Shown here: positions 12,610 to 63,784 of the stretch, piece by piece
Layout of the letters: each line of letters starts with the position of its first letter
How positions within the stretch are numbered: position 1 is the first letter of the stretch
Source of the DNA: Mustelus asterias
Taxonomy: Eukaryota
Length of the DNA stretch: 64,000 bases
Direction: 5' to 3'
Assembly (NCBI RefSeq): GCF_964213995.1
Contig: NW_027590186.1
Span: 1 to 64,000 of the forward strand
The notes under the pieces: model-generated
Told to the model about the DNA's origin: nothing
The model's input: only the letters and a program-made list of their open reading frames with translations
The model's database searches: none
Translations under genes and position numbers: made by a program

Positions 12610-13368
12610 TCATTCATGAACGTGTTGGTGTCTCAGCAGGGCAAATGAAGCTCTGAATCCCTTCCCACACTGAGAGCAGGTGAACGGTCTCTCTCCAATG
12701 TGAACTCGCTGGTGTCTCAGCAGGTGGGATGAAACTCTGAATCCCTTCCCACACTGAGAGCAGGTAAAGGGCCTCTCCCCAGTGTGAAGTCGATGGTGTG
12801 CCAGCTGGGTGGATAACTGAGTGAATCTCTTCCCACACTGAGAGCAGGTGAACGGCCTCTCCCCAGTGTGAACTCGCTCGTGTGTCCGCAGGGTGGATGA
12901 ATGACTGAATCCCTTCCCACACTGAGGGCAGCTGTACGGCCTCTCCCCAGTGTGAACTCGCTGGTGTGTCTGCAAGTGGGATAACTGAGTGAATCCCTCC
13001 CCACATTGAGAGCAGATGAACGGTCTCTCCCCAGTGTGAACTCGCTGGTGTGTCCGCAGGTTGGATAACCGAGTGAATCTCTCCCCACACTGCGAGCAGG
13101 TGAACGGTTTCTCCCCAGTGTGAACTCGGTGGTGTGTCTGCAGGTCGGATGAGTGAGTGAATTCCTTCTCACACACAGAGCAGGTGAACGGTCTCTCCCC
13201 GGTGTGAACTCGCTGGTGTCTCTGCAGACTGGATGAGTGACTGAATCCCTTCCCACACACAGAGCAGGTGAATGGTCTCTCCCCGGTGTGACTGCGTCGA
13301 TGAGTTTCCAGATCAGATGGGACTTTGAATCCCTTCCCACAGTCCCCACATTTCCACGGTTTCTCCAT
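12610..13368 (-). CDS. C2H2 zinc-finger-only protein ZNF-1 (252 aa, 9 fingers)
   Basis: ATG in ACCATGG context at 13368 ([12 protein letters not shown]); 9 CX2CX12HX3H fingers with TGERP linkers; TGA at 12610-12612. Confidence 0.9.
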
Positions 13369-14529
13369 GGTGCGGGTGTCCTTGTGACTCTCCAGGTTAA
13401 ACAATCAGTTGAATCTCACACAGAACAGTCTCTCCCCACTGAGAATGCTGTGATGTATTTTCAGGCTGTGTAACTGGTTAAAGCTCTTTCCACACTCATT
13501 GTGCTGGAACACTTTCACTCAAGGGTTGTTTATGTGTCTTGGTGCTTTTCCAGTCACACTGATCTTTAAAATCTTTTGAAGCAGCAAGAAACATTTCTCC
13601 TTCTCGAATCAAAGGTCGATAATATTCAGGTCTCGATAAATTGAGTGACTCTGTTAGATGTTGTTGTGATGTTTGTTCTGGGTATTTGTCTGTAAATCCT
13701 CACCTTCTGATATCCTGTAAAAGGAATTTACAAAAGTAATTATTGTAAGTACAGGATAGAAATTCAGAACAGACAATTCTAGTTTCTATGGAACATTCTT
13801 TCCTCTCTCATTCCCCAAAAGCTGTAAATCTCCATCCCACACACTCTCCCTCCATTCTCACTCTGCTGTATCTAATATTCACCCTCCCAATTCTCCTGAA
13901 CATTCTGATTCAGACTGATTGACAGATTTATGCGAACTGCTTCCTGTCCCAGACACAGAGATCTGAAAATCTCCATGCAGGCTGCCATACACATAAATGT
14001 CTATATGACTGGACTAAAAATGTGTGGAATATACAGAGTGGATTCACTTCTTTTCCATTCAGTGGGTAAGGGTGGACAAGTTGCCAGGACCCAATCATGT
14101 CCTTGTTCTTGTGTGGTGACCAGATTTGCACACAGTATTCTAGCTGTGTGCATTGTGCATAACTCCATCATAACCTCCTTTTCTTATATTTTCTGCCTTG
14201 GCTAATAAAGGGAAGTATCCCAAATCCCTTCTGAACCATTTCATTAATCTATCCTGCTGTCTTCAGGGTCTGATGGAAATGCACCCCAAGATTCTTCTGG
14301 TCCTCTGTACTTCCTGGGGACCAACCATTCATTGTATGTTCCCTTACCTTGTTAGTTCTCCCAAAATGAATTACCTCATACTTTCCAGGGTTAAATTGAA
14401 TTTGCCATTGCTCTGTTCATCTAACCAGCCCATCTGCATCCTGTTGTAATCTGAGGCTTTGCTCCTCACTATTTATTACACCTGTGAAATTACTGATCAT
14501 AATTCTGACACATTTGGATCATTAAGGCT

Positions 14530-14850
14530 CGACGGCACGGTGGCAATATTAGATACAGCATTGCTGCATCACAGCGCCAGGGACTCGGGTTCAAATCCGG
14601 TCTTGGGTCACTGTCTGTGTGGAGTTTGCACATTCTCCAGTGTCTGTGTGGGTTTCCTCCAGGCATAAGGTTTCCTCCCACAGTCCAAAGATGTGCGGGT
14701 TAGGTTGATTGGCCATGTCAAATTGACCCTAGTGTCAGGGGGATTATCAGGGTAATCTGAGGGGTTCTGGGAAGAGGGCCTGGGATTGTAGTCAGTGCAG
14801 ACTTGATGGGCCGAATGCCCTCCTTCTGCACTGTAGGGATTCTATGATTA
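14530..14850 (+). mobile_element. HE1/V-SINE-type SINE
   Basis: Head, core and tail as in the other copies. Confidence 0.8.
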
Positions 14851-15109
14851 ATGTGCACAATATTAATTTGCTCCCCTTATATGTCAGACATCACCTGGGG
14901 AAGTCAGACCATCCTTTTAGCCAGACAAATAAATGTGTCAGCTGAGGGAGCAAAGGATGTCAATGTCTTTAAGAGAGAGAGAAACCTGGGCCAACCTTTC
15001 CAGAGTCTGTAGCCTCCCTGGATTCACTTCCTTTCCCTTCAGTTGCTCCAAGGCCCCAATTTTCCCCCAGAGTAAGAAAATAAATGGAAAAGGGGGAGGG
15101 AAGAAAGCG

Positions 15110-15600
15110 TTTTACTCACAGATGTTGATGATAGGAGAAGTTTTCGTCTGTCTGAAGCTCAATATTCACTCAGACAGAGGAGCAGTAGCAGCTTTGCTGG
15201 GCAACAGTGGAAGCTCCATGCAACAATTGACACAAGGCCCGGACTCTGGTTGGCTGGAGGACCAGTGCCCATCCGGTCCTCCACGCGTTGCCATTGGTCA
15301 ATCTGTCGCATGTAGACAATGAGGGGGCGGAACCCGAGCCCACGTGGGGGTGGGCGGGGCTTTGACCGCCAGCCGCGCTGAGCTGGCGTCCAATCCGCAG
15401 TATTTCGCTTCTGTAACCAGCGATATTGCTGCCAATGGGACACTGTGTGCTGCGAACGCCCCTCTGAGTCATTGTGACGGCACAATGGAGCCCTGCCTGA
15501 ATCAGCCAATAGCAATCACTCTGCTCCGCGGTGACGTCTCCGGGTTCAGGCGCGCGGACCCGGGAGCTCCGCCCCCACCCATTGTTCCCCAGTCTGTACA
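15110..15600. promoter_or_regulatory. CpG-rich bidirectional promoter of ZNF-1/ZNF-2
   Basis: CpG-rich; GC boxes (gggcgggg), several CCAAT boxes, CRE-like gtgacgtc and cattgtgacggcacaatg; minus-strand first-exon donor CT|GTGAGT near 15119. Confidence 0.7.
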
Positions 15601-15667
15601 TTCCACACATTGTTAGTCCAGTCAGATAGACATATATCTGTCTGGCCGCCTGCATGGGGATTTCCAG

Positions 15668-15747
15668 CTCTCTGTGTCCAGGACAGGAAGCAGTGAGCAT
15701 GGATCTGTCAATCAGCCTCAATCAGCACCTTCAGGAGAATTGGGAGG
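15668..15747 (+). other. Conserved 5' exon of the ZNF genes carrying a short uORF (MDLSISLNQHLQENWE..)
   Basis: TTTCCAG acceptor, ATG at 15699, GG|GTGAAT donor; near-identical copies upstream of ZNF-1, -3, -4, -5 and -8. Confidence 0.6.
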
Positions 15748-16251
15748 GTGAATATTAGATACAGCAGAGTGAGAATGGAGGGAGAGTGTGTGGGATGGAG
15801 ATTCACAGCTTTTGGGGAATGAGAGAGGAAAGAATGTTCTATAGAAACTAGAATTGTCTGTTCTGAATTTCTATCCTGCACTGACAGTGGTGACTTTTAT
15901 AAACTTCTTTTACAGGAGATTAGAAGATGAGGGTTTACAGACAGAAATCTTAAACTAAAGTTCACGTCAATATCTGACAGTCACTAAATTCATCCGGACC
16001 TGAATACCATCGGCCGTTGAATCTAGAAGGAGAAATGTTTCTCTGTTCTGTCTGCGTCAGAAGATTTTAAACATCAGTGTGGCTGGAAAAGCGCCGACAC
16101 ACATAAACACAGCTGAGTGAGAGTGTTCCAGTGTACAGATGTGGAACCAACAGTAACACAGCCTGAAAAAAACATTGCAGCATTCAGAGCAGGGACAGAT
16201 TGTACCCGTGTTATATCAATGCATGACGAAAGATACAAGGATACCCACACC

Positions 16252-17382
16252 ATGGAGAAACCGTGGAAATGTGGGGATTGTGGAAAAGGATTCATGTCCC
16301 CATCTGAGCTGGAAATTCATCGACGCAGTCACACTGGGGAGAAGCCATTCACCTGCTCTGTGTGTGGGAAGGGATTCATTCATTCATCCCACCTGCTGAG
16401 GCATAAAGTCACTCACACCCTGGACAGACCCTTTAAATGCTCTGACTGTGGGAGTGAATTCAAAAGCTCTGGAAAACTGGTGTCCCACCAGTGCATTCAC
16501 ACTGAGGAGAGACCGACCAGCTGCTCTCACTGCTCAAAGAGGTTTAAAACATCATCCAACCTGCAAATACACCAGCAAGTTCACTCCAGGGAGAGACCGT
16601 TTACCTGCTCTGAGTGTGGGAAGGGATTCACTGCTTCATCCTACCTGCTAAGACACAAAGTCACTCACACCAATGAGAGACCCTTTAAATGCTCTGACTG
16701 TGGGAGCGGCTTCAAAAGGTCTCGGGAACTGATGGCCCACCAGCGCATTCACACTGAGGAGAGACCGTTCAGCTGCGCTCAGTGTGGAAAGGGATTCACT
16801 CAGTTATCCGCACTGCAGCTACACCAGCGAACTCATACTGGGGAGAAGCCGTTCACCTGCTCTGTGTGTGGGAAGGGATTCACTCGGTCACACAGCCTGA
16901 TAAAACACAATCTCACTCACACCAATGAGAAACCCTTTAAATGCTCTGACTGTGGGAGTGGCTTCAAACGTGCTGAGAATCTGATGTCCCACCAGCGCAT
17001 TCACACTGAGGAGAGACCGTTCAGCTGCTCTCACTGCACAAAGAGGTTTAAATGGTCAAACGGCCTGCGGGAACACCAGCGAGTTCACACCAGGGAGAGA
17101 CCATTCACCTGCTCCGTGTGTGGGAAGGGATTCACTCAGTCATCCGCCCTGCTGAAACACAAAGTCACCCACACCCAGGAGAGACCCTTTAAATGTTCTG
17201 ACTGTGGAAGTGGTTTCAAAAGTTCTCGGGCACTGATGTCCCACCAACGCACCCACACTGAGGAGAGACCGTTCAGCTGCTCTCACTGCACAAAGAGGTT
17301 TAGAAGGTCATCCCACCTTCAGAAACATGAGCGAATTCACACTGGGGAGAGGCCATTCACCTGCTCTCTGTGTGGAAAGTGA
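16252..17382 (+). CDS. C2H2 zinc-finger protein ZNF-2 (13 complete fingers; premature TGA inside finger 14, ancestral frame continues to 17514)
   Basis: ACCATGG start at 16252; CGK*F nonsense codon (GGA>TGA) at 17380-17382; the rest of finger 14 and all of finger 15 are intact in frame, ending HK* at 17512-17514. Confidence 0.88.
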
Positions 17383-17764
17383 TTCAGTGATTCATACTAC
17401 CTGCTGACTCACCAGCGAGTTCACACTGGGGACAGGCCATTCACCTGCTCTGTGTGTGGGAAGGGATTCATTCAGTCATCTCACCTGCTGAAACACCAGC
17501 GAGTTCACAAGTGATGACACGGGTTGGATTCTGCTGTTGATCTCATCCAGGACTGAACCATGTTCATTCTGACAGTTGGTGAAGTGGGAGGGTCAGAGGA
17601 TTTCTTTCTGCTGGACTGGACGGTCTTATGGCTTTGCTTCCAGTGGGCTGATGCTCTTTGTGCCTGGGAGAGCACATTTCACTGAAATGATCCACAAAAG
17701 CTGATGAAGGATATTTATTTTATCTGGATAGTAAATAGTGTTTTTCCCACTGCTACAGTTAGCT

Positions 17765-20497: not shown

Positions 20498-20805
20498 TTT
20501 TACAAAAGTTAAAGTTCAGCCAGTGATTAGAAACCAGGTCGAGGAAGTAGGAAATGCCAATTCCTTGGTAATTTAAGGTGGACCATTTGTGAGCTTAAAA
20601 TTGATGCCAACCCAAAATTGGACTTTCTTCATGACCTGCTTTTTGATGGAAAGCATTTGGCGGGTCCAAATCACTTCAATTTTGTCATTGTATAGTGCAC
20701 AAATACAACGGAAAGAGAGCTTGCAGGCTCCAAGATACAAAGAAAAAAGCAAATGCAGTCGTCATTATAAAATAATGCCAATAGTCAAAGAAATAGTCAA
20801 AGAAA

Positions 20806-26877: not shown

Positions 26878-27663
26878 CTACACAGAGCAGCTTAACGGTC
26901 TGTCCCCAGTGTGAACTCGCTGGTGTTTCCGCAGGTCGGATGACCGAGTGAATCTCTTCCCACATTGAGAACAGGTGAATGGTTTCTCCCCAGTGTGAAC
27001 TCGCTGGTGTCTCTGCAGCGTGGATGACCTTTTAAACCTCACTGAACATTGTGAGCAGCTGAACGGTCTCTCCTCAGTGTGAATGCGCTCATGCTCTCGA
27101 AGAACTGCAGCACTTTTGAAGCCGCTCCCACAGTCAGCACATTTAAAAGGTCTCTCATTGCTGTGAGTACCTTTGTGTTTCATGAGGCTGGATGAAGCAG
27201 TGAATCCCTTGCCACACATGGCGCAGGTGAATGGTTTCTCTCCAGTGTGAACTCGCTGATGTACCCGCAGGTTGGATGACCTTTTAAATCTCTTTGTGCA
27301 GTGAGAGCAGCTGAACGGCCTCTCCTCAGTGTGAACACGTTGATGGGACACCAGTTCCCAAGAACTTTTGAATCCGCTCCCACAGTCAGAGCAGTTGAAG
27401 GGTTTCTCACTGGTGTGAGAGAGATTGTGACTCAGCAGCTGGGATGAGCGAATGAATCCCTTCCCACACATGCTGCAGGTGAACGGCATCTCCCTGATAT
27501 GAACTTGCTGGTGTGTCAGCAAGTCGGATGACTGAATGAATCCCTTCCCACACATGCAACAGGTGAATGGTCTGTCCCCAGTATGAATGTGTCGATGAAC
27601 TTCAAGCCGAGATGGGAATCTGAATCCCTTCCCACAGTCCCCACATTTCCACGGTTTCTCCAT
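26878..27663 (-). CDS. C2H2 zinc-finger protein ZNF-3 (261 aa, 9 fingers)
   Basis: MEKPWKC start; stop inside a 10th finger; decayed fingers continue to about 26065. Confidence 0.88.
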
Positions 27664-46618: not shown

Positions 46619-47767
46619 TCAGACCTGGATATGATTAACAGCATCGATAAGTGTAGAATCCAAACCTTGCAGTCGTTTGTGAACTCGCCGGTGTGTTAGC
46701 AGGTGGGATGACTGAACAAATCCCTTTCCACAGACATTACAGGTGAACGGCCTCTCCCCAGTGTGAACTCGCTGGTGTTTCAGAAGATAAGAGAAATGAG
46801 AAAATCCCTTCCCACAGACAGAGCAGGTAAATGGCCTCTCCCCACTGTGAACTCTCTGATGTGTCAGCAGGTTGGATGACTGACTGAATCCCTTCCCACA
46901 CATGGAGCAGGTGAACGGCCTCTCCCCAGTGTGAACTCGCTGGTGATTCAATAGGTTGGATGAACGAGTGAATCCCTTCCCACATACGGAGCAAGTGAAT
47001 GGCCTCTCCTCACTGTGAACCTGCTGCTGTGTCAGAAGGTTGTATGAACGGGTGAATCCCTTCCCACATTCAGAGCAGGTGAACGGTCGATCCCCTGTGT
47101 GGAGTTGCTGGTGTATCAGAAGGTTGGATGAATTAATGAATCCCTTCCCACAGTCTGAGCAGGTGAAGGGCCTCTCCCTAGTGTGAATTCTCTGGTGGTT
47201 CAATAGGGCAGATGGATGGCTGAATCCCTTCCCACACACACAGCAGGTGAATGGCCTCTCCCCAGTGTGAGTATATTGGTGCGTCAGCAGATCTTTTTTA
47301 TTTTTAAAGCTCTTCTCACAGTGGGAACAATTAAAAAGTTTGTTATCAGAGTGAACAAGTTGATGTGTCTGCAAGTGGGATGACTGAATGAATCCTTTCC
47401 CACACACACAGCAGGTGAACGGTCTCTCCCCAGTGTGAATACGTTGGTGCGTCAGCAGATCTTTTTTGCATTTAAAACTCTTCCCACAGTCAGAACATGG
47501 AGACAGTCTCTCATCAGTGTGAACAAGTTGGTGTGTCACAATGTGGGATGAGCGAGTGAATCCCTTCCCACACACAGGGCAGGTGAACGGCCTCTCCCCA
47601 GTGTGAACCCGTTGGTGAGTCAGAAGGTTGTATGAATGGGTGAATCCCTTCCCACAAACAGAGCAGGTGAACGGTCTCTCCCCAGTGTGACTGCGCTGAT
47701 GAACTTCCAGTTGTGATGGGAAACTGATTCCTTTCCCACAATCCACACATTTCCACTGTTTCTCCAT
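46619..47767 (-). CDS. C2H2 zinc-finger protein ZNF-6 (382 aa, 13 fingers, finger 9 degenerate H>Q, 18-aa read-through tail)
   Basis: MEKQWKC start; the family stop TGA is replaced by CGA. Confidence 0.9.
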
Positions 47768-48599
47768 GGTGCTGGTGCCCTTGTGTTTCTCCAGGTTGGA
47801 TGATCAGTTCAAGCCTCATCCACACACACAACATACACGTAGTTTCACCCTGCTGTGAACTGTGATTTTTTTTCAGGCTGTGTAACTGGTTAAAGCTCTT
47901 TCCACAGTCGGTTCACTGGAACACTCTCACTCGGGTGTGTGTTTGTCCTGCTGCTTTTCTGGTCACACTGATGTTTAATTTCTTTGCCCACAGGCAGAAC
48001 AGACAAATATTGCTCCTTCCATATTCAAAGACCGATCATATTCAGCTCCGAAGGAACTGAATGACTTTGTCAGATGTGATGTTCGGTTTGAGTTTTCTGT
48101 CTGCCATTCCTTCACTTTGAATATCCTGTAAAAACAGTTTAGAAAAGTCATCACTGTCAGAACAGGATAGAAACTCTGAACAATTCTAGTCCTACTGGAA
48201 CATTTTTTCCTTTCTTGTTCCCCCAAATCTGTAAATCTCCGTCCCACACACTCTCCCTCCTCCCTGCGCTGAAATCCAAACCCATCTCACCATTTCTTTC
48301 CTCCACTCCCAGTTTTCTCCCTCCCTCTCCTCTGTCTGGGTTCAGTTCTCCAGCTCCTGTCTGCAGACTGACAATAAAACCAATGGGTCTTATTGGGGGT
48401 GTTGGGGCCTCCAGCGGGTGTTTGTGAATCCTCCCCGCCCACCTCCCAGGGTTTCCTTCCTTCCCAGAGATCAGAGTCCTCATTGATTTGAGGCCAAAGT
48501 GTAACCTCTTATTTATTGTCCCCCTCCCCCATCCTCTGATGTGAACCATCCTCCAGTGGCTGAGCCAGGATGGGGCCGTTAACCTGGGCCTGTTCCCGG

Positions 48600-49180
48600 G
48601 AGGGAGGGAGGGAGAAGCCCCGCAGCTGCAAACCAGGGAGCTGACAATGATTCTGAAGGGTTTGCGGATCCACAAAGTGTTTCCAAATCCTCCCAGCCAC
48701 CGCCTAACGCTGACTCCGCTTCTCCGGGACAAACAAGCGCCAAGGACAGCAATGACACTGCGCATGCTCCACATCACAATGCCCGGGCACTGATTGACGG
48801 CAGCTCCGGACCAATAGGAAGAGGGGGCGGGGCTGGAGGACCGAGCGGGAGCGGCTGGTCCTCCAACCAATCGGAGTGAATGAGAGGCGGGGCCTGTAGC
48901 ATGCGCAGTGCGGGTAATGACGACGGATGGACGGTTTTAACTCGGTAGCGAGATCAATACGAGGTAGAGGGCGGCGTGCGAGGAATGATAAATGTGGCGG
49001 GTGGGTGGAGAGGCTTTGTAAACATGTTGTTCAAACCCAAACCCCGGAAATGAACTTCCCGGTTCCCCCCCTTTGTACCAAATGGAGCGGCAGCTTGTAG
49101 TGTTAGACCCGGGCTGACTGCCGCCATTGAGGCTGCATGTGGGAGGCCGGCAGGGATTGTGATCGGAGAGTGAAGCCCTG
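48600..49180. promoter_or_regulatory. CpG island / bidirectional promoter of ZNF-6 (and possibly ZNF-7)
   Basis: High CpG; two NRF1-like sites (tgcgcatgc near 48759, gcatgcgca near 48899), CCAAT boxes, GC boxes, ETS-like ccggaa, YY1-like gccgccatt. Confidence 0.7.
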
Positions 49181-49345
49181 ACGTCACAATGGAATGGGTG
49201 AGAGTGTGAGGTCACAATGGAATGGGTGGGAGTGTGAGGTCACAATGGAATGGGTGAGAGTGTGATGTCACAATGGAATGGGTGAGAGTGTGACGTCACA
49301 ATGGAATGGGTGAGAGTGTGATGTCACAATGGAATGGGTGAGGGT
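49179..49345 (+). repeat. 28-bp tandem repeat x6 (TGACGTCACAATGGAATGGGTGAGAGTG)
   Basis: Six direct copies; each has a CRE or CRE variant and a GG|GTGAGA donor-like motif. Confidence 0.88.
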
Positions 49346-49394
49346 TCCAGATGAGCTGACACTGGGCTGGAGTCGGGCGATGGCACTGACATGT

Positions 49395-49700
49395 GGCCCG
49401 GTGGCACAGTGGTTAGTGCAGCTGCCTAACAGCGCCAGGGACCCGGGTTCAATTCCAGCCTCGGGTCGCTGTCTGTGCAGAGTTTCTACATTCTCCCCGT
49501 GTCTGTGTGGGTTTCCTCCGGGTGTTCCGGTTTCCTTCCACAGTCCAAAGATGTGCAGGTTAGACAGATTGGCCATGATAAATTAACCCTTGGTATCAGG
49601 GGGATTAACAGGTAAATATGTGGATAGGGCCTGGATGGGATTGTTGTCGGTGCAGGCTCGATGGGCTGAATGGCCTCCTCCTACAATGTATTTTATGATT
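49395..49700 (+). mobile_element. HE1/V-SINE-type SINE
   Basis: Head, core and tail. Confidence 0.85.
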
Positions 49701-49825
49701 CATTACTGTTAATTAATTAATTACTTTGAATGAAGGTGGTCTTGATGATGATGTGGACGTGGTTGGAAGCTCATATTGGGATGAACTATTTCACCCTGGT
49801 TGTGAACAGCCTGTTTCAGCCTCAG

Positions 49826-50196
49826 ACAGTAAGTAATCTCACAACACCAGGTTAAAATCCAACAGGTTAATTTGCTGGCATAAGCCACAGGATTTTGGAG
49901 CGCTGCTCTTCATCAGGTGAGTGGGAGTTCTATTCACAAACAGGGCACAGAGACACAAACTCAATTTACAAAATAATGGTTGGAATGTGAGTCTTTACAG
50001 GTAATCAAGTCTTAAAGGTACAGACAATGTGAGTGGAGAGAGGGTGAAGCACAGGTTAAAGAGATGTGTATTGTCTCCAGCCAGGACAGTTAGTGAGATT
50101 TTGCAAGCCCAGGCAATTTGTGGGGGTTACAGACAGTGTGAGTTACAGATAGTGTGACATGAACCCAAGATCCCGGTTGAGGCCGTCCTCATGTGT
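49826..50196 (-). mobile_element. Penelope-like fragment
   Basis: Same family as 28810-29207 (THEDGLNRDLGFMSHYL* plus pLTR). Confidence 0.8.
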
Positions 50197-51104
50197 GATT
50201 GACAGATCCATGCTCACTGCTTCTTGCCCTGGATGCAGAGAGCTGAAAATTTCCATGCAGGCTGCCAGACAAATAAATGTCTACATTACTGGAGTAAAAA
50301 TGTGTGGAATATACAGACCGAATTCACTTCACTCCCTTCAGTTGCTGCAAGTCCCCAATTTCCCCAGAATGAGAAAAGAAATGGAAAGGGGGAAACATTG
50401 ATTTCCTCCCAGATGTTGTCCAGAAGAGGAAGTTTCAATCTGAAGCTCATTGGACAACTTCCGCATTGTGACGTCACAATGGAGCCTGCCTGAATCAGCG
50501 AATAGGAATCTCTCTTCCGACATCAAGAGCTGATGTTTCTTGTCTCGATGACCCTTTGTCAAAGCTCTGAAACATCAGTTCTTTTCTCTCCATACAGATG
50601 CTGCCAGACCTGCTGAGAATGGGGAGACAGTGTGTGGGATGGAGATTTACAGCTTTTGGGGAATGAGAGAGGCAAGAATGTTCCATAGAAATTGTCTGTT
50701 CTGAATTTCTATGCTGTACTGACACTGATGACTTTTGTAAACTCGTTTTACAGGATATTGAAAGAGGAATCACAGGCCGAAATCTCAAACGTCATGTCTA
50801 GACGTGACAGAGTCATATTCCTTGGGACCTCAATATCATCGGACTTTGAATCCAGAAGGAGAAATGATTGTCCAGTCTGTCGATTTGAAAAGATTTGAAA
50901 TGTCAGTGTGAGTGAAAAAGCATCAACACACTGCCACACTTGAGTGAGAGTGTTCCACTGCACTGACTAAAGAGCTTTAACCAGTTACACAGTCTGAATA
51001 AATATCACACCATTCACAGCGGGGAGAGACTGTAATCTTGTTCTGAGTGTGGGCGAAGTTTCAACTAATTGTCCAGTCAAGAGAGAGGTAAGGACACCTG
51101 CACC

Positions 51105-52283
51105 ATGGAGAAACCATGGAAATGTGGGGACTGTGGGAAGGGATACAGAGCCCCATCTAAGCTGGAAGCTCATCGACGCAGCCACACTGGGGAGAGACCA
51201 TTCACCTGCTCTCAATGTGGGAAGGGATTCACTCGATTATCCCTCCTGCAGAGACACCAGCGAGTTCACACTGGAGAGAGGCCATTTTCCTGCTCTCAAT
51301 GTGAGAAGGGATTCAGTCAGTTATCCGACCTGCAGAGACACCAGCGAGTTCACACTGGGGAGAGGCCGTTCACCTGCTCTCAGTGTGGGAAGGGATTCAC
51401 TCAATTATCCACCCTGCGGACACATGAACGAGTTCACACTGGGGAGAGGCCATTCACCTGCTCTCAGTGTGGGAAAGGATTCATTCTGTTATCCAGCCTG
51501 CGGATACACCAGCGAGTTCACACTGGGGAGAAACCATTCACCTGCTCTCAGTGTGGGAAGGGATTCATTCAGTTATCCAGCTTGCAGAAACACCAGCAAG
51601 TTCACACAGGAGAGAGGCCGTTCACCTGCTCTCAGTGTGGGAAGGGATTCATTCTGTTATCCCTCCTGCAGAGACACCAACGAGTTCACACTGGGGAGAG
51701 GCCATTCAACTGTTCTCAGTGTGGGAAGGGATTCACGAACTCATCCATCCTGCGGACACACGAACGAGTTCACACTGGGGAGAGACCGTTCACCTGCTCT
51801 CAGTGTGGGAAGAGATTCACTCAGTCAGCCGACCTGCAGAGACACCAGCTACGTCACACAAGGGAGAGGCCGTTCACCTGCTCTCAGTGTGGGAAGGGAT
51901 TCATTCTGTTATCCAGCCTGCGAATACACCAGCGAGTTCACACTGGGGAGAAACCATTCATCTGCTCTCAGTGTGGGAAGGGATTCACTAACTCATCTGA
52001 TCTGCGGACACACCAGCGAGTTCACACAGGGGAGAGGCCGTTCACCTGCTCTCAGTGTGGGAAGGGATTCACTCAGTCATCCCACCTGCAGAGACACCAG
52101 CGAGTTCACACTGGGGAGAGACCATTCAACTGTTCTCAGTGTGGGAAGGGATTCACTCAGTCATCCAACTTGCAGACACACCAGCGAGTTCACACTGGGG
52201 AGAGGCCATTCACCTGCTCTCAGTGTGGGAAGGGATTCAGAGTTTCATCCCACCTGCTGAGACACCAGCGAGTTCACGAGTGA
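51105..52283 (+). CDS. C2H2 zinc-finger protein ZNF-7 (392 aa, 14 fingers)
   Basis: ACCATGG start at 51105; 14 intact fingers; ends HE*. Confidence 0.92.
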
Positions 52284-53379
52284 TTCCAGAGGTTGGATTC
52301 TGCTGTTATTGTTTCTGCTCTCAATTACATCCAGGACTGCATTTTGTTCATTCTCACAGTTGGTCAATGGGGAGGGTCGGAGGGTTTCTTTCTGCTGGAC
52401 TGGCCGGTCTCATGACTTTGCCTCCAGTGGGCTGATGCTCTTTGAGTCTTGTTGCGAATACCTGGTTTTTAGATTTCACACGGATCACAGAGTGACAGGG
52501 TGTTAGGAAGTTATAGAGGTTTACAACATGGAAACAGGCCCTTCAGCCCAACTTGTCCATTCCGCTCAGTTTTTACCACTAAGCTAGTCCCAATTGCCCG
52601 TATTTTGCCCATATCCCTCTATACCCATCTTACCCGTGTAACTGTCTAAATGCTTTTGAAAAGACAGTATTGTACCCACCTCTACCACTGCCTCTGGCAA
52701 CTCGTTCCAGACACTCACCACGACCTGAGTGAAAAACTGCCCCTCTGGACCCTTTTGTATCTCTCCCCTCTCACTTTAAACCTCAAACTAAGAACAAGAA
52801 ATGTATCGATAAAATGATTAGAGAACAGAGCCAACATTTTGAGTCTGAATGATACTTCATGAGAGCTGTTATGAAGGGTCATCCATTATCGAAACCTTGG
52901 CTCCATTCTTCACAGGTGCTGTCAGACCTACTGAGATTTTCCAGCATTTTGTGTTTTTGTTTCAGATTCCGGTATCTGCAGTATTTTACTCTTCTGATGA
53001 AATGATTAGTTCTGATTGGAATCCCCATGACCCTCCTTCAAAACAGAGGGAGTGGTGGCAGAAGGAGAAAAAGGATCAGGATGATAAAGTCTGGGTTCTG
53101 ATTCTCCGAGCCCATGTAGAATTAACAAAATGAGTGAACCAGTTTATAAAGAACAGAAGTTACCTATCCCTAACAAAAACTGAACAAATTAAAATAATTA
53201 GGTTGAGGAAGAGAACAAAAGAATTCATAGATAAAGTTTAAAATCAACTTTGTTTTGTTGTTAGAGAAGTTTTTAAAAATTATGTAAAGTGATGTAACTG
53301 TGTGCCAAGTTTCTTCTCACTCCCCACCCCTTTCGGTTCTGTAGAAAAGTTAACCCTTTCAGCAGACAGTTGATTTAGT

Positions 53380-56075
53380 CATGGAGTCATAGAGGTTTCC
53401 AGCTTGGAAACGGGCCCTTCAGCCCAACTTGTCCATGCCGCCCCTTTTTTAACCCCTGTGCTCATCCCAATTGTCCACGTTTGGCCCATATCCCTCGACA
53501 CCCATCTTACCCATGTAACTGTCTAAACGCTTTTTAAAAGACAAAATTGTACCTGCCTCTACTACTACCTCTGGCACCTTTTTCCAGACACTCACCACCC
53601 TCTGTGTGAAACAAGTGCCCCTCTGGACCCTTCTGTATCTCTCCCCTCTCACCTTAAACCTATGCCCTCTAGTTTTAGACTCCCCTACCTTTGGGAAAAG
53701 ATATTGACTATCTAGCTGATCTATGCCCCTCATTATTTTATAGACCTCTATAAGTTCACCCCTAAGCCTCCTACATTCCAGGGAAAAAAGTCCCAGTCTA
53801 TCCAGCCTCTCTTTATAACTCAAATCATCAAGTCCCGGTAGCATCCCAGTAAATCTTTTCTGCAGTCTTTCTAGTTTAATAATATCCTTTCTATCATAGG
53901 GTGACCAGAACTGTACACAGTATTCCAAGTGTGGCCTTACCAATGTCTTGTAAAACTTCAACAAGACATTCCAACTCCTGTATTCAATGTTCTGACCAAC
54001 ATGCAGAATGCCTTCTTCACCACTCTGTCCACCTGCAACTCCATTTTCAAGGAGCTATGTACCTGTACCCCTAGATTTCTGTTCTGTAACTCTCCCCAAC
54101 ACCCTACCATTAACTGAGTAAGTCCTGTCCTGGTTCGATCGCCCAAAATGGATTACCTTGCATTTATCTAAATTAAACTCCATCTGCCATTCGTCAGCCC
54201 ACTGGCCCAATTGATCAAGATCGCGCTACAATCCTAGATAGCCTTCTCCACTGTCCACAATGCCACCAACTTTGGTGTCATCTGAAAACTTACTACACAT
54301 GCCTCCTACATTCTCATCCAAATCATTAATATAAATGACAAATAACAGTGGACCCAGCACCGATCCTTGAGGCACACCGCTGGTCACAGGCTCCAGTTTG
54401 AAAAACAACCTTCTACAACCACCCTCTGTCTTCTGTCATCAAGCCAATTTTGTATCCATTTGGCTAACTCACCCTGGATTTCATTAGATTTAACCTTAAG
54501 CAACAACCTACCTTGCGGTACCTTGTCAAAGGCCTTGCTAAAGTCCACGTAGACAGCATCACCTGTACTGCCCTGATCTACCTTCTTGGTTACCCCTTCA
54601 AAAAACTCAATCAAATTTGTGAGACATGATTTTCCACTCACAAAGCCATGCTGACCGTCCCTAATCAGTCCTTGTGTCTCCAAATGCCTGTAGATCCTGT
54701 CTCTCAAATACCTTCTGACAACTTACAGATGTGAATCACACCGCCCTTTAGTTCCCAGGCTTTTCCCTGCAGCCCTTTTTAAACAAAGGCTCCACATTTG
54801 CCACCCTCCAATCTTTAGGCACCTCACCCGTGACTATCGATGATTCAAATATCTCTGCTAGGAGACCCGCAATTTCCTCCCTAGCCTCCCACAGTGTTCT
54901 GGGATACACTTCATCAGGTCCCGGGGATTTATCTACCTTGATGCGCTTTGTGACTTCCAGCACCTCCTTCTCTGTTATAAGTACACTTCTCAAGACATCA
55001 CTTTATTTCCCCAAGTTCCCTAACATCCATGCTTTTCTCAACAATAAATAATGATGAAAAATATTCATTTATGATCTCACCCATCTCTTGTGGATCCGCA
55101 CATAGATGACCTTGTTGATCCTTAAGAGGCCCTACTCTCTACCTAGTTACTCTTTGGCACTTTATGTATTTATAGAACCTCTTTGGATTCTCCTTTGCCT
55201 TATCTGCCAAAACAATCTCGTGTCCCCTTTTTGCCCTCCTGACTTCTCTCTTAATTCTACTCCTACACCCTCGAAACTCTTCAAGGGATCCACTTGATCC
55301 CAGCTGCCGATGCATGTCATGTGCCTCCTTCTTCTTGACGAGGGCTTCAATATCTCGAGTCATCCAGGGTTCCCGACTTCTACCAGCCTTGCCCATCACT
55401 CTAAGAGCAATGTGCTTACCCTGAACCCTGGTTAAAACACTTTTGAAAGCCTCCCACTTACCAGACGTCCCTTTGCCTTCCCACAGACTCCCCCAGTTAA
55501 CTGTCGAAAGTTCCTGCCTGATACCATCAACATTGGCCTTTCCCTAATTTAGAATTTTAACTTTTGGACCTGACCAATCATTTTCCATAGGTATCTTAAA
55601 ACTAATGGAATTATGGTCACTGGTCCCAAAGTGATCCCTCACTCACACTTCTATCACCTGCCCTTCCTTATTTCCCAAGAGGAGGTGAACTTTTGCCCCT
55701 CTCTAGTCGGGCCATCCACATACTGAATGAGAAATTCCTCCTGAATACACTCAACAAATTTCTCTCCATCCAAGCCTCTAATACTATGGCTGTCCCAGTC
55801 AATGTTGGGAAAGTTAAAATCCCCGACTATTACCACCCAATTTTTCTTGGAACTATCTGTAATCTCCTTACATATTTGCTCCTCAATTTCCCACCGACTA
55901 TTTGGGGGCCTATAGTACAACCATATCAAAGTGATTTCCCCCTTCTTTCTCATTTTGACTCAGTAGGCGAACCCTCGGATATATCCCCTCTCAGTACTGC
56001 CGTGATGTTTTCCTGAATCAAAAGTGCAACTCCCCCTCCTTTCTTTCCTCCTGTTCTATCTTTCCTCTGGCATCT
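53380..56075 (-). mobile_element. CR1 LINE ORF2 (partial APE endonuclease plus RT), degenerate
   Basis: ORF 55654-55953 (YYRPPN..GDFNFPNIDW) and RT ORFs 53449-55399. Confidence 0.9.
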
Positions 56076-56964
56076 TGTTTTTAACTTGTTTTTAAATCAC
56101 CCAGAAACTCGTGTCTATTTTAGTTTATAATTGTGGATTTATTGGAGCCAGTTAAATGTGGAAATTTTAAGCATACCCTGGAGGAATTTGGAATAACTGA
56201 GAATTTTATTTTGTTGTCACCTCAACACCAGATAAAGAACAAAGAGTTTGCAGGTGGTAACGTGTTTGGGATTTTAAATTAACAAAGATTAGATGTTGCT
56301 GATAAAATCAGGCCTTGGAAGTTGGCTTAAAAAGGGTTAAGTTACAATGAAGGATCTTGCATCTTATTTTAATCAAGGAGTTGTGAGCTTGTAGTGCTCT
56401 GTCGCTTTAAGAAGTTATAGCTGCGAGAGAGAATGCTGAGGATTCATTGTTTGAAATTTACAAGCTGTGAGAATCTGTGTGTTTTGTTTGTTTTTGTGTG
56501 GATGTTTGTAGATGTGTTTTATCATTGTTTTGGGCTACATTTGTTAAGGTTTATCTTTCTGGGGAATTAACCTTACCTTGAGTCTTTAATTAAAGGCATT
56601 TTTGGGAGTTTAAAAACAGAATCAGAAGAATGCTTAAGTAATTAATTTTGGTTATTATTGTAAAGCACATGCTAAGTTTCTCTGTTGGTGTGTGGATGAT
56701 ATTTGTGGGTTGAACGCTTTAAGCTTTGAGGTTTTTTGTCTGTGATTTAAATCAAACAGATTTTTAAAATGGAAGTGTAATGAATAAAGCTTTTTTTTTC
56801 AAAAGTTATGAACCTGGAGCCATATTTACTGTCCAGAGACAGGATTCCAGGATATTTTACTAAACATGTGGGAATTTTAATCCAGATAAAACTCACTCAT
56901 GAAATTGAGAGTTTTAATTTGTCATGGTTATTGTAAGGGGAAGTTTTCTCACTTCCTACCAGCA

Positions 56965-57497
56965 TGAAAGACAAGCAGACATGAGTACAGTACAAAAAGG
57001 CAACACAAATTTTATTCTCTGTTTAAAATAACAAAACCGCAGGCCTGGGGAGAGACAGCTGCTCGTCAACTGCTCTGCCTGGCCATTATGCGCTTTACAG
57101 TTTATAGGGTTTTGAACTTCATGCCAAACATATGGTAATAGGTTCAACATTTACGACAAGTTACATGATCAGTACCAGCTCATAACACAAAGCAGTGGCA
57201 CAATAGCGAGATATTAAAACAGCCATTATAGATAGGTGGAGCTGATCCCATTTCCCCTGGGCTGATCTGTTTCTGGAGGGCTCCCTTTGTGATTTGAGCT
57301 TCTTGCATAATCTAATCAGTTGAGCTATTGTCTGTGTTTCCCTGCTTGGAGTCTAAAGTGATTAAGGCTGTCTGAAGTGATTAGGGGGTGCAAGGAGCCT
57401 CTCCATGAGTCATCGCATTGCTGTGAACTGTTGACAATATTTTAAAATAAATTTGATATACACACGTAAAAATATCCATGATATTAAGCATAAAGGT
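56965..57497 (-). mobile_element. Possible solo LTR
   Basis: On the minus strand, a purine-rich gaagggggcga tract precedes it, AATAAA lies near the end and it terminates ..ctttca. Confidence 0.35.
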
Positions 57498-57673
57498 CGC
57501 CCCCTTCAGTTATTTAAAATTTGGTACATATGAAACGATTCTGACCAATCCTGTGTTGGATTGATCTTGGGTTAAACTTCCTGTCAGGTCCAAAGATTTA
57601 ATCCTGACACAATTAACACAATGAAAAGGAAAATTCTGGAATTGGATACTGAAGAACAGAGTTTAAAAGGAGA

Positions 57674-58122
57674 GATTATTAAATAGAAATGTTCCCAGAC
57701 CGTGTGGTCATTAGATTGAAACAAAGGAAGGGTGCTGACATCCATTTGAGAATTTTTAATCCACCCCTTTTCAAACTGAGTCTATGTACAAAGAAAACCC
57801 CAAGGATGGTAGACGAGGGGGTCTGGAAAACATCATGATGGGGGCACCTATCTGTCCATGAGATGATCACAAAGCCCCATAATGCCCAGATACTAATTTT
57901 ATTGAACCTATAATGTATGTAATCGATCACCATTCTGATTGGATTGTGTCCAGCCGGGATGGGCTGAGTAACTGGATAAGAATTGATGATATTCTTTATT
58001 GGGTGGAGTTGCACATGGTCAGCCCCTGTGGCTTCTCCCCGCTGGCGTAACTCAATAAACTGTTTGTCGATTGAATCAGGTCTGAGTGTTGAATGATTCT
58101 TCTGAGTTCATTCCCCACAACA
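57674..58122 (+). mobile_element. Possible LTR
   Basis: Purine tract aaaaggagaga upstream, AATAAA near 58055, ends ccccacaaca. Confidence 0.4.
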
Positions 58123-58275
58123 CACTGGGTACATTACCACTTCATCCTCGGGAGTGGCCTGATAGGCCGTGGTCCAGACTACATGTGGACTTTGGGGGGC
58201 CTTTCATGAATCACATGTTTTTGCTTGTTGTAGATGCACATTCAAAATGCTTGGAAGCACAGATCATGAGTAATA
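58123..58275 (+). mobile_element. Gypsy-type integrase fragment
   Basis: PLHPREWPDRPWSRLHVDFGGPF..FLLVVDAHSK. Confidence 0.8.
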
Positions 58276-58944
58276 TTCCAGGGCAATTAGGACTAGCTTA
58301 GTGGTAAAAACTGGGCAGCATGGACAAGTTGGGCCGAAAGGCCTGTTTCCATGCTGTAAACCTCTACGACTCTAACTACCTTTTTTGTGGCCTGAAGTTC
58401 CCACAATTGGAAAGCAGCCAGATTAGTTAAATAGACAGCATTAATTGTGAGACAATTAAATAATAAATGATTCATTAATACATATGTTATAAAGGCTGGA
58501 AATATAAATTTGAACACAGGTTTATAACTTTTAGAATTATAAACACTTTAAGAATGGTTAAAATGCTGTGGGAATTATAAGATGTTCCCTTCCCATGCTG
58601 ACAGAATAAAGAAAGATGAAAGGACTTGTTAACCTTGACTGGAGGGAATGAATCGGCTCCTGTTCAAGATGTCTCAACATTGAATGACTGATGTGAACCA
58701 ATTATCAGTCAACACTTGGGCTACCCCAAGCTAAGAGATATCGTTTGAGAGAAAGGTATGTCTTAAAATTAAGACAATATGTGCAATTAGCTAAAAACCA
58801 AATCAATTTCATTATTGACAAGTTATAGACCAATTGGCTAATTCCTAACAATTAGCTGAGGATGGCTTTCTACATTTTGAAAGTATAAAAAAGGGGATTC
58901 GAGAAACCAATCTGGTAGAAGTTTTTAAAAGTTAACTTTTTTTA

Positions 58945-59230
58945 TAGTTTGTTTATTAGTGTCACACATAGACTTACATTAACATTGCAATGAAGTTACT
59001 CTGATAATCCCCCAGTCGCCACACTCTGGTGCCTGTTTGGGTAAACTGAGGAAGAATTTAGCATAGCCAATGTACCCAACCAGCACGTCTTTCGGACTGT
59101 GGGAGGAAACCGGAGCACCCAGAGGAAACCTGCACAGACACGGGGAGAATGGGCGAACTCCGCACAGCCAGTGACCCAAGCCGGGACTCGAACCCTCTGC
59201 TGTGAGGCAGCAGTGCCTCACACTGTGCCC
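58945..59230 (-). mobile_element. V-SINE-type SINE
   Basis: Reverse complement of the 9529-9835 type. Confidence 0.8.
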
Positions 59231-60086
59231 TACAGAGAGACGTTGAGAGCTGTTAGTTTTACAAGTTATCCACGTTTTCAGAGCCATCACTTCATGTCCT
59301 GGTTTGAGAAGGATGGAGAAGTTGAAGTTAAGCTCTCCTCCTTTTGCTGTTGATCGATACTTTGCTTTTTTATCTTTCTGACTCGTTACATTTTTAATGG
59401 TTAATAAACTTTCTGAATTCACCATTTAAAGTGTTCTTTCTTGCCATATGGTTAAGTCACTGGAACCTGGTGTGATTTACGATTAGGGAGGTTATTGTAA
59501 ACAAGAGAACCCCCATAAATCTTAGTTCAAACAAATCAAAGTTCTTACAAATGGAATGTTATCCTTTATTCTGAGAGAAATTGAACATAGAAGTAAAGAT
59601 GTTATGCTTCAGTTGTGCAGGGCGTTGCTGAGATTGCACCTTGAACACAGGGTACAATTTTGTCTCCTATTAAACAAAGGATATAAATACATTGGAAGCA
59701 GTTCAGAGGAGGTTTACAAGATTGATTCCCAATCCAGTAGTGTGAAACATTAACACTGTTTCTCTCTCCACAGATGCTGCAAGACGTGTTGTGTTTTTCC
59801 AGTCCTTTCTGTATTTATTTTAAATCTACCTGTAGTGGTAGGAAAAACACTATTTACTATCCAGGATAAAATAAATGTCCTTCATCAGCTTTTGTGGATC
59901 ATTTCAGTGGCAATGTGCTCTCCCAGGCTCAAAGAGCATCAGCGAACTAGAAGCAAAGTCGTGAGACCGGCCAGTCCAGCAGAAAGAAACCCTCCGACCC
60001 TCCCACTTCACCAACTGTCAGAATGAACATGGTTCAGTCCTGGATGTGATTAACAGCAGCAATAAAACAGAATCCAACCCCTGTCA

Positions 60087-60545
<459 letters not shown>

Positions 60546-60559
60546 TCAATTAAATCTCA

Positions 60560-60667
<108 letters not shown>

Positions 60668-61402
60668 TCAGGTGTGTCTGTGTCTTGGTGTATTTCCAGT
60701 CACATTTATGTTATAAAAAATTCTGACGCAGACAGAACATTAAAAGATTTCTCCTTCAAGATTGAAAGGCCAATGATATTCGGGTCCCAATCAATCAAAT
60801 GTCTGTCAGATGTTGATGTGACGTTTGATTCGAGATTTCTGTCTGTAAATCCCCACCTTCTGATATCCTGCAAAAGGAGATTACAAAATTCATCAGTGTC
60901 AGTACAGGACAGAAATTCAGAACAGACAATTCTAGTTTCTATGGAACATTCTTTCCTCTCTCATTCCCCAAACGCAGTAAATCTCCATCCCACACACTCT
61001 CCCTCAATTCTCACTCTGCTGTATCTAATATTCACCCTCCCAATTCTCCTGAAGGTGCTGATTGAGGCTGATTGACAGATCCATGCTCACGGCTTCCTGT
61101 CCTGGACACAGGGAGCTGAAAATCTCCATGCAGGCTGCCAGACAGATGTCTATAATACTGGATAAAAGTGTAACATACAGGACATTACTTGAGTAGTGGT
61201 AGAGCAGGGATTTGAGGAAGATTTATATTTAGGTAGGGAGAGCACATGATCTAGAACTCGCTGCCTATGAGGATGGTGGAACAGAAGATTCAATCATTTC
61301 AAAATGAAATTGGATGGGTACTTGAAGGAAATAAAACTTGCAGAGGAATGTTGATAGAGAGAAAGAACAGGATTCTACAGAGAATCAATCTGCAGTCCAT
61401 AA

Positions 61403-61561
61403 GATGACGTGGAGATGTCGGCGTTGGACTGGGGTGGGCACACAACACCAGGTTCATCAGGTGAGTGGCCATTCACCTGATGAAGGAGCAGTGCTCCGAA
61501 AGCTCGTGCGATCAAATAAACCTGTTGGACTTTAACCTGGTATTGTGAGACTTCTTACTGT
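61403..61561 (+). mobile_element. Penelope pLTR relic with canonical hammerhead core
   Basis: cac-CTGATGA-A-GGAGCA-G-TGCTCC-GAAA-GCTC-gtg at 61474-61508. Confidence 0.7.
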
Positions 61562-61631
61562 TTATAAGATGTACAGGTTAGGTTGATTGGCCATGCTCAA
61601 TTGCCACTTAGTGTCCCAGGATGTGTGGGTT

Positions 61632-61848
61632 GGGGGGGCAATGCTCGGGGGGGGGCAATGCTCAGGGGGGGGCAATGCCCGGGGGGGGCAAAGCCCGGGG
61701 GGGGCAAAGCCCGGGGGGGGGGGCAAAGCCCGGGGGGGGGGCAAAGCCCGGGGGGGGGGGCAAAGCCCGGGGGGGGGGGGGGGCAAAGCCCAGGGGGGGG
61801 GGCAAAGCCCAGGGGGGGGGGGGGGGCAAAGCCCAGGGGGGGGGGAGG
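61632..61848. repeat. G-run minisatellite (GnCAAAGCCC), G-quadruplex-prone
   Basis: About 11 units with G7-G14 runs. Confidence 0.85.
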
Positions 61849-61850
61849 GA

Positions 61851-62945
61851 CAGAGAGATAGTAAAAGTTTTTACAAATATATAAAAAGGAAAAGAGTAGC
61901 TAAAGTAAATGTTGGACCCTTAGTAGATGAGAAGGGGGATTTAATAATGGGAAACGAGGAAATGGCTGAGGCCTTAAACAAGTTTTTTGTATCAGTCTTC
62001 ACGGTAGAGGACACAAATAGCTTACCGAAAATTGACGGTCATGGGACTGTAGGGGATGAGGTCCTTAAAATGATTACTATTACTAAAGAGGTAGTGCTTG
62101 GGAGGCTAATGGGACTAAAGGTAGACAAGTCCCCGGGCCCGGATGGAATGCATCCCAGGGGACTGAAATAAATGGCAGAAGTAATAGAGGATGCGTTGGT
62201 TGTAATTTATCAAAATACGCTGGACTCTGGGGAAGTGCCGGCTGATTGGAAAACAGCTAATGTGACGCCACTGTTTAAAAAAGGAGGTAGACAAAAGGCG
62301 GGTAACTACAGGCCGGTTAGCTTAACGTCCGTAGTTGGGAAATTGCTGGAATTCATCATTAAGGAAGAAATAGCAGGACACCTGGAAAAAAATGGTTTGA
62401 TCAAGCAGACGCAGCATGGATTCATGAAGGGAAAGTCGTGTTTGACAAATTTACTGGATTTTTATGTTGATGTAACGAGTGCGGTTGACAGAGGGGAACC
62501 AGTGGATGTGGTGTTTTTGGATTTCCAGAAGGCGTTCGATAAGGTGCCTCACAAAAGGTTGCTGCAGAAAATCAGGGTGCACGGAGTTAGGGGTAAAGTG
62601 TTAGCGTGGATTGGGGATTGGCTATCTAACAGGAAGCAGAGAGTTGGAATAAATGGGTGCTTTTCTGGTTGGCAGTTGGTGACTAGTGGCGTGCCACAGG
62701 GATTGGTGCTGGGGCCTCAAGTATTTACCATATGCATAGACGATCTGGAGGAGGGGACCGAGTGTTGGGTAACAAAGTTTGCGGATGACACAAAGATGAG
62801 TGGGAAAGTGAATTGCGTGGAGGATGCGGTAAGTCTGCAGAGAGATTTGGATAGGCTAAGTGAGTGGGCGAGGATCTGGCAGATGGAGTATAGCGTTGGT
62901 AAGTGTGAGCTTATCCACTTTGGAAGGAATAATAGTAAAATGGAA
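61851..62945 (+). mobile_element. CR1 LINE RT fragment
   Basis: ORFs 61587-62171 (3' part) and 62172 to about 62945 with full RT motifs; truncated at both ends. Confidence 0.9.
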
Positions 62946-63143
62946 GCTGCAATGCTGCCCCCTGTTGTTCACTTCTCCCAGTCTCAGCATTGCAGAGTGT
63001 TTAAACAAGAATGGCACATTCAGCACCATGGAATGAGAACATTCGGACTAACTCTTCGTTATACAATTGTTCTGTTTGTATTAACAGTTCACAATCCAGG
63101 TCACAGATCTGATTCAGTGAGAGGAGGTGAGAGTGCCTTTGCA

Positions 63144-63182
63144 GGTTTTTGTACGGGCTCACTGCGCCTTTGTAACAGTGTG
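63144..63182 (-). promoter_or_regulatory. Recombination signal sequence, 23-bp spacer
   Basis: Heptamer CACACTG (63182-63176), 23-nt spacer, perfect nonamer ACAAAAACC (63152-63144), directly after YHCALSP. Confidence 0.95.
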
Positions 63183-63489
63183 GGGCTCAGCGCACAGTGA
63201 TACACGGCAGAGTCAGAGACATGGACCCCAGTGATATTTAAAGGAACTGTTTTCTTGTCCTTGTCCAAATCAGCAGAAAACCGGTCAGGGAAATCTGGAG
63301 ACTTTTCTCCGCCCCCCGTGCTATATTTCTGCAGTAAATATCTCGGAGCTTCCCCGGGATACTGGATGTACCAGAAGAGATTTGGAAAAGCATCCGTTGT
63401 TGTGTAATTACAATTCACTATTACGTTCAATCCTTCCTGAACCGTTAATTCAGCCGGGTCCTGGGAAACTGAATCTTGGCCATTGATTC
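63183..63489 (-). CDS. TRAV: T-cell receptor alpha/delta variable segment, V exon
   Basis: TTGCAG acceptor; reads GINGQDSVSQDP..VIVNCNY..LFWYIQYPGEAPRYLL..DRFSA..VPLNIT..VSDSAVYHCALS with the conserved Cys, Trp and Cys; open frame. Confidence 0.92.
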
Positions 63490-63574
63490 CTGCAACAAAA
63501 TGTAGAATGTGTGAGAAATCTGTGAACAAATATAACCCATGAAACACACACTGAGGATCTGAGCTCAGACTCAC

Positions 63575-63620
63575 CGGGCAGCGTGGTCATTGTTATCAGT
63601 AAAGCACACAGGAGATACAT
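63575..63620 (-). CDS. TRAV: TCR V leader exon (MYLLCALLITMTTLP/G)
   Basis: ATG at 63620; 46-nt phase-1 exon; GTGAGT donor; 85-nt intron in frame with the V exon. Confidence 0.9.
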
Positions 63621-63674
63621 GGTTCCTGATTGGACAGTAAGCAGCGACAATGTTTACAATAAGTTGCTGCCTCT

Positions 63675-63784
63675 AGTCTTATATCACAGAGTGAACTCAG
63701 ATCAGAGGCAGCTTCAAGTATTCAGAAACAGGGAGGCGTTTCTCAGTGCTGCGATTGGTTCATCTCCCTGAGCTGACGTCAGCT
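63675..63784 (-). promoter_or_regulatory. TCR V promoter (TATA-like, CCAAT, palindromic CRE)
   Basis: TATAAG near 63680, CCAAT near 63755 and AGCTGACGTCAGCT at 63771-63784; CRE-like elements are known in TCR V promoters. Confidence 0.65.

Follow-up and report, generated by a model that had tools for sequence, protein, structure and literature searches.

How does an intact variable (V) segment from the alpha/delta family of T-cell receptor (TCR) genes come to lie at the edge of a cluster of zinc-finger (ZNF) genes, and with what could it be joined from there? The V in question occupies the right end of the first 64 kb (the window, i.e., the whole stretch analysed) of scaffold C154 (817 kb) in the 3.68-Gb shark genome G000, and its recombination signal sequence (RSS) looks left on the minus strand toward eight ZNF arrays, as had been predicted from the sequence of the window. 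We consider it likely that this intact V is a passenger, rarely used productively, of a recent ZNF duplicon present in 13 copies inside an antigen-receptor region that also holds 19 delta J-C cassettes and two alpha arrays.

The original prediction had described a complete TRAV-type gene, and its leader, intron, V exon, 23-RSS and cyclic AMP response element (CRE) were all found in the sequence. The leader is split, the V exon is open and includes both cysteines and the tryptophan, the frame is open over 117 aa and ends in YHCALS, and the top single-domain PDB matches of the V were TCR alpha chains. The 23-RSS is near consensus (one mismatch in 16) and was the sole site in the window with three mismatches or fewer when spacers of 11–13 or 22–24 were scanned. 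The CRE octamer (TGACGTCA) occurs four times within the window, and it was present in the V promoter of all 12 V copies listed as well as in all five rows of the comparison with relatives from V arrays. Exactly the 85-nt intron was skipped in one contig of run X2 (a related organism; its RNA nature is a guess) on a ~92% relative of the V, which supports the gene model and not the use of this V copy. No run on record as RNA contained the stretch, which is evidence neither way. Contigs of X4, X5, X7 and X2 aligned to the V gave, among the rows listed, a single splice joint, nothing that joined V to J and no J-like loose end; X5 and X7 resemble DNA libraries (adapter and chimeric ends), contig depth was not taken as copy number, and the alignment of X2, X4, X6 and X8 contigs on 57–64 kb was swamped by repeats. 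No J or C segment was found in the 64-kb window, again as predicted.

The V travels in a duplicon of 24–35 kb: of the 150 scored matches to its exon, 13 are 100% identical in amino acids, each on a scaffold of its own. Scaffold stretches were compared directly in order to place the borders: a core (~43.5–67.8 kb) is common to C71, C87, C89, C104 and C105 at 97–99.9% identity, the left borders differ (≤27.5, ~33.3, ~43.5 and ~44.9 kb), and three further scaffolds have the same two ZNF arrays at equal offsets. All 12 listed V copies are intact, their distance to the window being 0–5 nt in 701, and RSS, CRE and splice sites are near consensus in 12 of the 13, C89 being the sole copy with a lost ATG. 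Since the copies are too young, their intactness is no proof of selection. The predicted co-expansion of V and ZNF genes by segmental duplication is thus borne out by the 13 copies and their shared core. A misjoin at 61.2–63 kb, the assembly error that had been named as a possibility, was rejected, as the junction is continuous at ~99% on all five other scaffolds read across it.

The V itself is part of a piece of ~3.5 kb (C154:62,142–65,658), whose identity to C315/C1630 is 96% inside the window and 91% beyond it. Relatives of the V at 92–95% are found on other scaffolds within dense arrays of V's, in which it takes second place in a tandem pair; the duplicon V and each of two such array relatives are ~10 coding positions apart. 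The far end of the piece (C154:65,610–65,658) is an orphan 23-RSS with an 8–10-nt V stub. At this upstream join, the 3' flank of a ZNF gene is fused, through 2-nt microhomology, to what is left of the first V (its last 8–10 nt) followed by the RSS of that V, next to an embedded heptamer (TACTGTG) of the lost V; the junction was identical in nine of nine copies read. Embedded heptamers of this kind play a role in V replacement, and a germline RAG cut would be compatible with the join, in that one of three registers fits this single event. The downstream join falls within a repeat called LINE-like (long interspersed nuclear element) from its likeness to a reverse transcriptase frame at 35.1–36.0 kb. 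Two joins, one by microhomology at the RSS of the upstream V and one internal to the LINE-like repeat, would have put ZNF DNA on both flanks of the V, after which repeat-driven duplication would have spread the V and ZNF block; a similar duplication may have spread V-D-J-C-delta cassettes of ~40–55 kb as units.

The surroundings are rich in receptor genes. C71 (20.4 Mb) and many small scaffolds contain numerous C1-set exons, which are probably immunoglobulin heavy chain (IgH), and V exons occur on both strands, with 13 of the 150 scored matches on C71. A basking-shark C-delta region used as query returned 19 C exons and 19 transmembrane (TM) exons without stops in G000, and the C-delta exon of G000 itself returned the same 19. 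All 19 C-delta exons are open, with 14 distinct sequences, and carry CLxxxFxP, a connecting peptide and a TM exon, while the C-alpha exons carry CLxTD, the signatures of delta and alpha, respectively, in the available part of PMC10322711. For every C-delta, 3–5 J motifs were counted on its own strand over no more than 22 kb, and a 12-RSS accompanies one or more of them. In class A (C436, C119 and C96), a supporting V-delta stands directly before the J's, and two of the three have a new antigen receptor (NAR)-type V; in class B (16 cassettes), an IgH-type V with a 23-RSS, a D and 4–5 J's precede C where the sequence read sufficed. The IgH-type V with its 23-RSS is open in seven cassettes (judged on the V exon), and a D with 12/23 RSSs was found in seven, with only its 5' 12-RSS in four more. 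An ordered same-strand set in keeping with 12/23, made up of an open V with a 23-RSS, a D (or the 5' RSS of one), J and C, is present in 7 of the 19. C138 holds a different open VH-type V ~0.4 kb from D-delta and ~21 kb upstream of C-delta, for which no RSS was found at the threshold used, and the C71_11.04 cassette has other V's, partly broken. As DNA, a multi-cassette delta locus is well supported; its function is a separate matter.

C-delta identity is 84–100% within G000 and at most 55% to other sharks, and these distances suggest that the expansion is recent. Eight NCBI models labelled Mustelus asterias match the G000 exons at 84–100%, are probably the same loci, and were not counted as independent support. 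A protein search, limited by its words and not a census, gave one C-delta model each in catshark, sawshark and whale shark, and in the sevengill shark two C-delta-bearing models (P0170 and P0173) on one contig, sisters in the tree, which represent a second, probably independent, duplication. Duplication of C-delta is therefore not unique to G000, and nothing near 19 appeared in that search.

One of the cassettes lies on C154 itself, at 714–768 kb, 655 kb to the right of the V and on the same (minus) strand. Read from right to left on that strand, V's at 756–773 kb are followed by D at 740.0 kb, five J's at 725.6–739.8 kb and C-delta at 714.5–718.2 kb, with the V of the window 655 kb further left, i.e., downstream of C, and the RSSs of V and cassette facing away from each other. 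Of the three placements that the original prediction had considered, a J-C cluster on the right was thus found when the scaffold was searched with orientation recorded, but V and cluster have the same orientation, both being on the minus strand; a cluster on the left is absent from C154, whose end is 63 kb from the V; and an orphon does not fit, given that C154 bears a delta cassette and the region is an IgH/TCR complex. TRDV3, which we take as the model for an inversional V, is on the strand opposite to its J-C. In the arrangement on C154, RAG cutting leaves both coding ends on the middle fragment. A join between the V of the window and the C154 cassette would thus carry the joined V-D-J-C gene away on a ~677-kb circle, and the chromosome would keep the signal joint, lose the DNA right of the V and retain the eight ZNF genes, which are spared because V and cassette are on the same strand with their RSSs pointing apart. 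The suggested somatic excision of the ZNF cluster is consequently not supported for this copy, whereas its geometry holds for the twin on C71, where the V (plus strand, 15.165 Mb) and J-alpha/C-alpha (plus strand, 18.37–18.43 Mb) are 3.2 Mb apart in deletional order. This twin could join J-alpha with deletion of the 3.2 Mb including ZNF genes; four ZNF arrays were counted in nine sampled 10-kb pieces of the interval, which by rough extrapolation would hold on the order of a hundred. As a side observation, two perfect 23-RSSs stand 61 nt apart (C154:767,543 and 767,604) behind the V that supports a NAR-TCR (NARTCR) chain.

The alpha genes depart from the canonical order trdc-(traj)n-trac given in the available part of PMC10322711, and from a single C-delta with a single C-alpha. 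G000 has two C-alpha with TM exons in two separate J-alpha/C-alpha arrays, each C-alpha occurring once: C546 with 138 J motifs and C71 with 33, 76% alike around the C exon. No C-delta was found ahead of J-alpha on C546, which has a 200-N gap (129,550–129,749) 8.5 kb before its first J, or before the C71 array. PF09291 returned no C-alpha among 17 candidates, the exons being too divergent and not absent. The C71 array (18.33–18.43 Mb) has ZNF arrays directly in front, its C-to-TM exon distance is 12 kb vs. 1.9 kb on C546, and at C546:68–94 kb four ZNF arrays separate V segments from the 138-J array; provided that the scaffold is correctly joined, ordinary V-J-alpha joins on C546 would delete these four. 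PSMB5, presumably a marker of the receptor complex, may be represented by two proteasome-family exons beside C1-set exons at C185:264.8–267.8 kb, and PF00227 had no match on C71 or C154 among 28.

Several points weigh against a passenger V among 19 delta cassettes. The contigs showed no transcript in which the V, or a V of any delta cassette, had been joined as V-J or V-D-J. The three class-A cassettes have no D or RSS between the supporting V and the first J, the IgH-type V is broken in three cassettes (including that of C154), and the upstream stretch read was too short in 4 of the 19. The C-delta tree is unresolved, a single clade being neither shown nor rejected (approximately unbiased test, p-AU 0.128), pN/pS (nonsynonymous to synonymous polymorphism) ranges from ~0.3 to 1.3 over seven pairs, and the open C-delta frames are weak evidence, because the probability of finding no stop in the 48 variable columns is 0.13. 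Scaffold order is also a concern: scaffolds smaller than C71, and unplaced in order, carry 16 of the 19 cassettes and 12 of the 13 V copies, and for this reason the V may face a usable partner past the contig end. Lastly, only two cassette pairs are at least 99.3% alike over the full 19 kb upstream (C71_12.27/C850, 99.9%; C110/C111, 99.6%), and five of the six closest pairs share no block of ≥98% in their flanks at 12–82 kb, the sixth (C111/C71_11.04) having such a block in common at +20 kb and lacking it at +60 kb; this loss of collinearity around the most alike cassettes argues against haplotigs, but the test used single 10-kb windows and is blind to haplotypes shifted by large indels.

Beyond the DNA, we tentatively suggest, at not quite even chances, that the delta locus consists of ~19 functional miniclusters like those of Ig, built from V's of NAR and IgH type together with D, J and C-delta and freed from alpha, and that the two alpha arrays are served by floating V's which ZNF duplicons spread about the chromosome. 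Such cassettes would mostly rearrange internally, like shark Ig miniclusters. It is possible, if somewhat doubtful, that the 19 are real but mostly inert by-products of IgH/ZNF duplication, with one or two being the true locus: several of the pN/pS values are near 1, the chance of open frames is as stated, broken V's occur alongside J's with in-frame stops, and the mosaic relationships of the cassettes are typical of segmental duplication. Against this reading, the C exon and a TM exon without stops are retained in 19 of 19 cases, seven cassettes retain an open V, a D (or the RSS of one), J and C in sequence, and classes A and B, 25–30 nt in 309 apart in the two pairs counted, are both open.

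It appears rather unlikely that the duplicon V is instead a working, dosage-amplified member of a V pool, with its 12 intact copies joining J-alpha or J-delta at long range by deletion or inversion and so removing or flipping ZNF genes in T cells. The near-consensus RSS, CRE and splice sites, the deletional order of the C71 twin with the ZNF arrays sampled in its interval, the spliced relative in X2 and a 93% relative 31 kb upstream of the C436 cassette are all in its favour. In addition, alpha/delta V exons spread over ~9 Mb in the white shark, between IgH clusters, in the available part of PMC12227049, and at human IGL ZNF280A/B and PRAME lie between V and J and are lost as bystanders on rearrangement (PMC9282919), an arrangement alike in ZNF placement; that loss was shown in B cells, whereas in G000 it is a matter of geometry and of the C71 twin only. 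Set against this are the youth of the copies, the wrong geometry on C154 and the lack of a joined transcript in the contigs, and we prefer the V as a passenger. It is very improbable that the numbers of copies are inflated by misjoins or by haplotypes left uncollapsed, for although most copies are on small scaffolds and the two pairs above are nearly identical, 14 distinct exons are impossible as alleles of one diploid locus, three cassettes sit on one scaffold (C71, 5–9 nt in 309 apart), flanks diverge, each C-alpha was found once and only one fetched locus contains an N run, so that such an artefact could trim the cassette count and not remove the pattern.

A V among ZNF genes is ordinary by itself, as scattered shark alpha/delta V exons have been published (PMC12227049); what is new here, as read from the genome, is the many-cassette delta locus. 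Our region resembles the elasmobranch antigen receptor complex of that paper in its IgH clusters, NARTCR V's, IgH-type V's and alpha/delta V exons over megabases in both orientations, but the available part of the text describes TCR alpha/delta as a translocon, and no species in its table S1 has more than a single model for C-delta or for C-alpha, against 19 and 2 in G000; 'Zinc finger' and 'ZNF' have 0 occurrences in the text. The standard contrast in cartilaginous fish is between Ig miniclusters and a TCR translocon (available parts of PMC6795676 and PMC12227049), and the G000 cassettes are like the former in being self-contained V-(D)-J-C units in many repeats, unlike them in being TCR delta with several V's and 3–5 J's each, for which within-cluster rearrangement is predicted. 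The second delta locus of galliforms and the tandem TCR-mu clusters, in the available part of PMC3457774, likewise have a VH-type V and D-J-C-delta that were relocated or copied together, and double-V chains, but there are two C-delta units in those tetrapods and TCR-mu is a separate mammalian chain, in contrast to 19 units among IgH and ZNF genes. The newt (PMC12698447, in its available part), whose TRA and TRD are separated, is similar in having two TRA J-C arrays and delta not nested before J-alpha; it differs in its TRDC, of which there are one or two, and in its TRD without D and VH-delta.

In the literature searched, for the most part listings and the openings of abstracts, with subscription journals and bioRxiv supplements outside it, nothing described a shark with multiple delta cassettes. 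Nurse-shark TCR delta is reportedly described by Criscitiello 2006, Ott 2021 and Deiss 2019, which could mention extra C-delta genes. The 19 delta cassettes show that the cluster form is open to a TCR locus, and it was probably taken up recently. Should they be functional, one could test how a T cell restricts itself to a single delta chain when up to 38 alleles are present, whether chains joining an IgH V to delta are made inside a cassette vs. through trans-rearrangement, and what separates alpha-beta from gamma-delta fates without delta nested before J-alpha.

Table 1. Features of the window on C154, with positions counted from its first nucleotide
Feature	Position	Strand	Remarks
ZNF array 1	12616..13350	-	9 fingers
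ZNF array 2	16270..17508	+	13 fingers, stop in 14th
ZNF array 3	26911..27645	-	9 fingers
ZNF array 4	29600..31402	+	9 in-frame fingers, then stop and frameshift
ZNF array 5	40216..41118	-	11 fingers
Duplicon core	43500..64000		V, ZNF arrays 6–8 and one more array beyond the window; continues to ~C154:67,800
ZNF array 6	46679..47749	-	12 motif matches
ZNF array 7	51123..52277	+	14 fingers
ZNF array 8	60093..60652	-	5 in-frame fingers and one out-of-frame upstream finger
LINE-like repeat	61900..62900		holds left junction of V piece
Piece of tandem V pair from dense V arrays	62142..64000	-	runs past window to C154:65,658
23-RSS	63144..63182 (63182-63144)	-	CACACTG + 23-nt spacer + ACAAAAACC; faces left
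TCR alpha/delta V exon	63183..63489	-	open, 307 nt
Intron	63490..63574	-	85 nt, GT-AG
Leader exon	63575..63620	-	46 nt, phase-1 donor; ATG at 63620
CRE octamer in V promoter	63774..63781		TGACGTCA; ~155 nt before ATG

The eight C2H2 arrays left of the V span 12.6–60.7 kb (Table 1). As had been stated, the V lies about 2 kb upstream of the eighth on the same strand, with the likely ZNF splice acceptor (~60870, judged by eye) 2.3 kb from the RSS. That the V abuts a ZNF cluster is also true, but understates the setting, since ZNF arrays continue to its right and 21 were counted in C154:1–144,000. Pfam was run on 294 chosen open reading frames (ORFs), comprising the majority of the 364 that reach ≥28 aa in the non-repeat sequence up to 58 kb as well as 31 long ones; these gave zero matches to KRAB, SCAN or BTB, the upstream exons not being RNA-mapped. 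The DHRS1 gene placed in the window by the original prediction was not recovered in five tests: for example, no short-chain dehydrogenase/reductase (SDR) match was present in the 294 ORFs, none of the 18 scored matches to PF00106 (175 candidates in G000) was on C154, and six-frame translation of the window gave no convincing match to motifs that we take to be those of SDRs (TGxxxGxG, NNA and YxxxK). A CpG-rich open frame of 259 codons at 48160–48936 (minus strand), without a Pfam match, is probably a promoter region, and two CRE octamers lie near it at 49179 and 49291.

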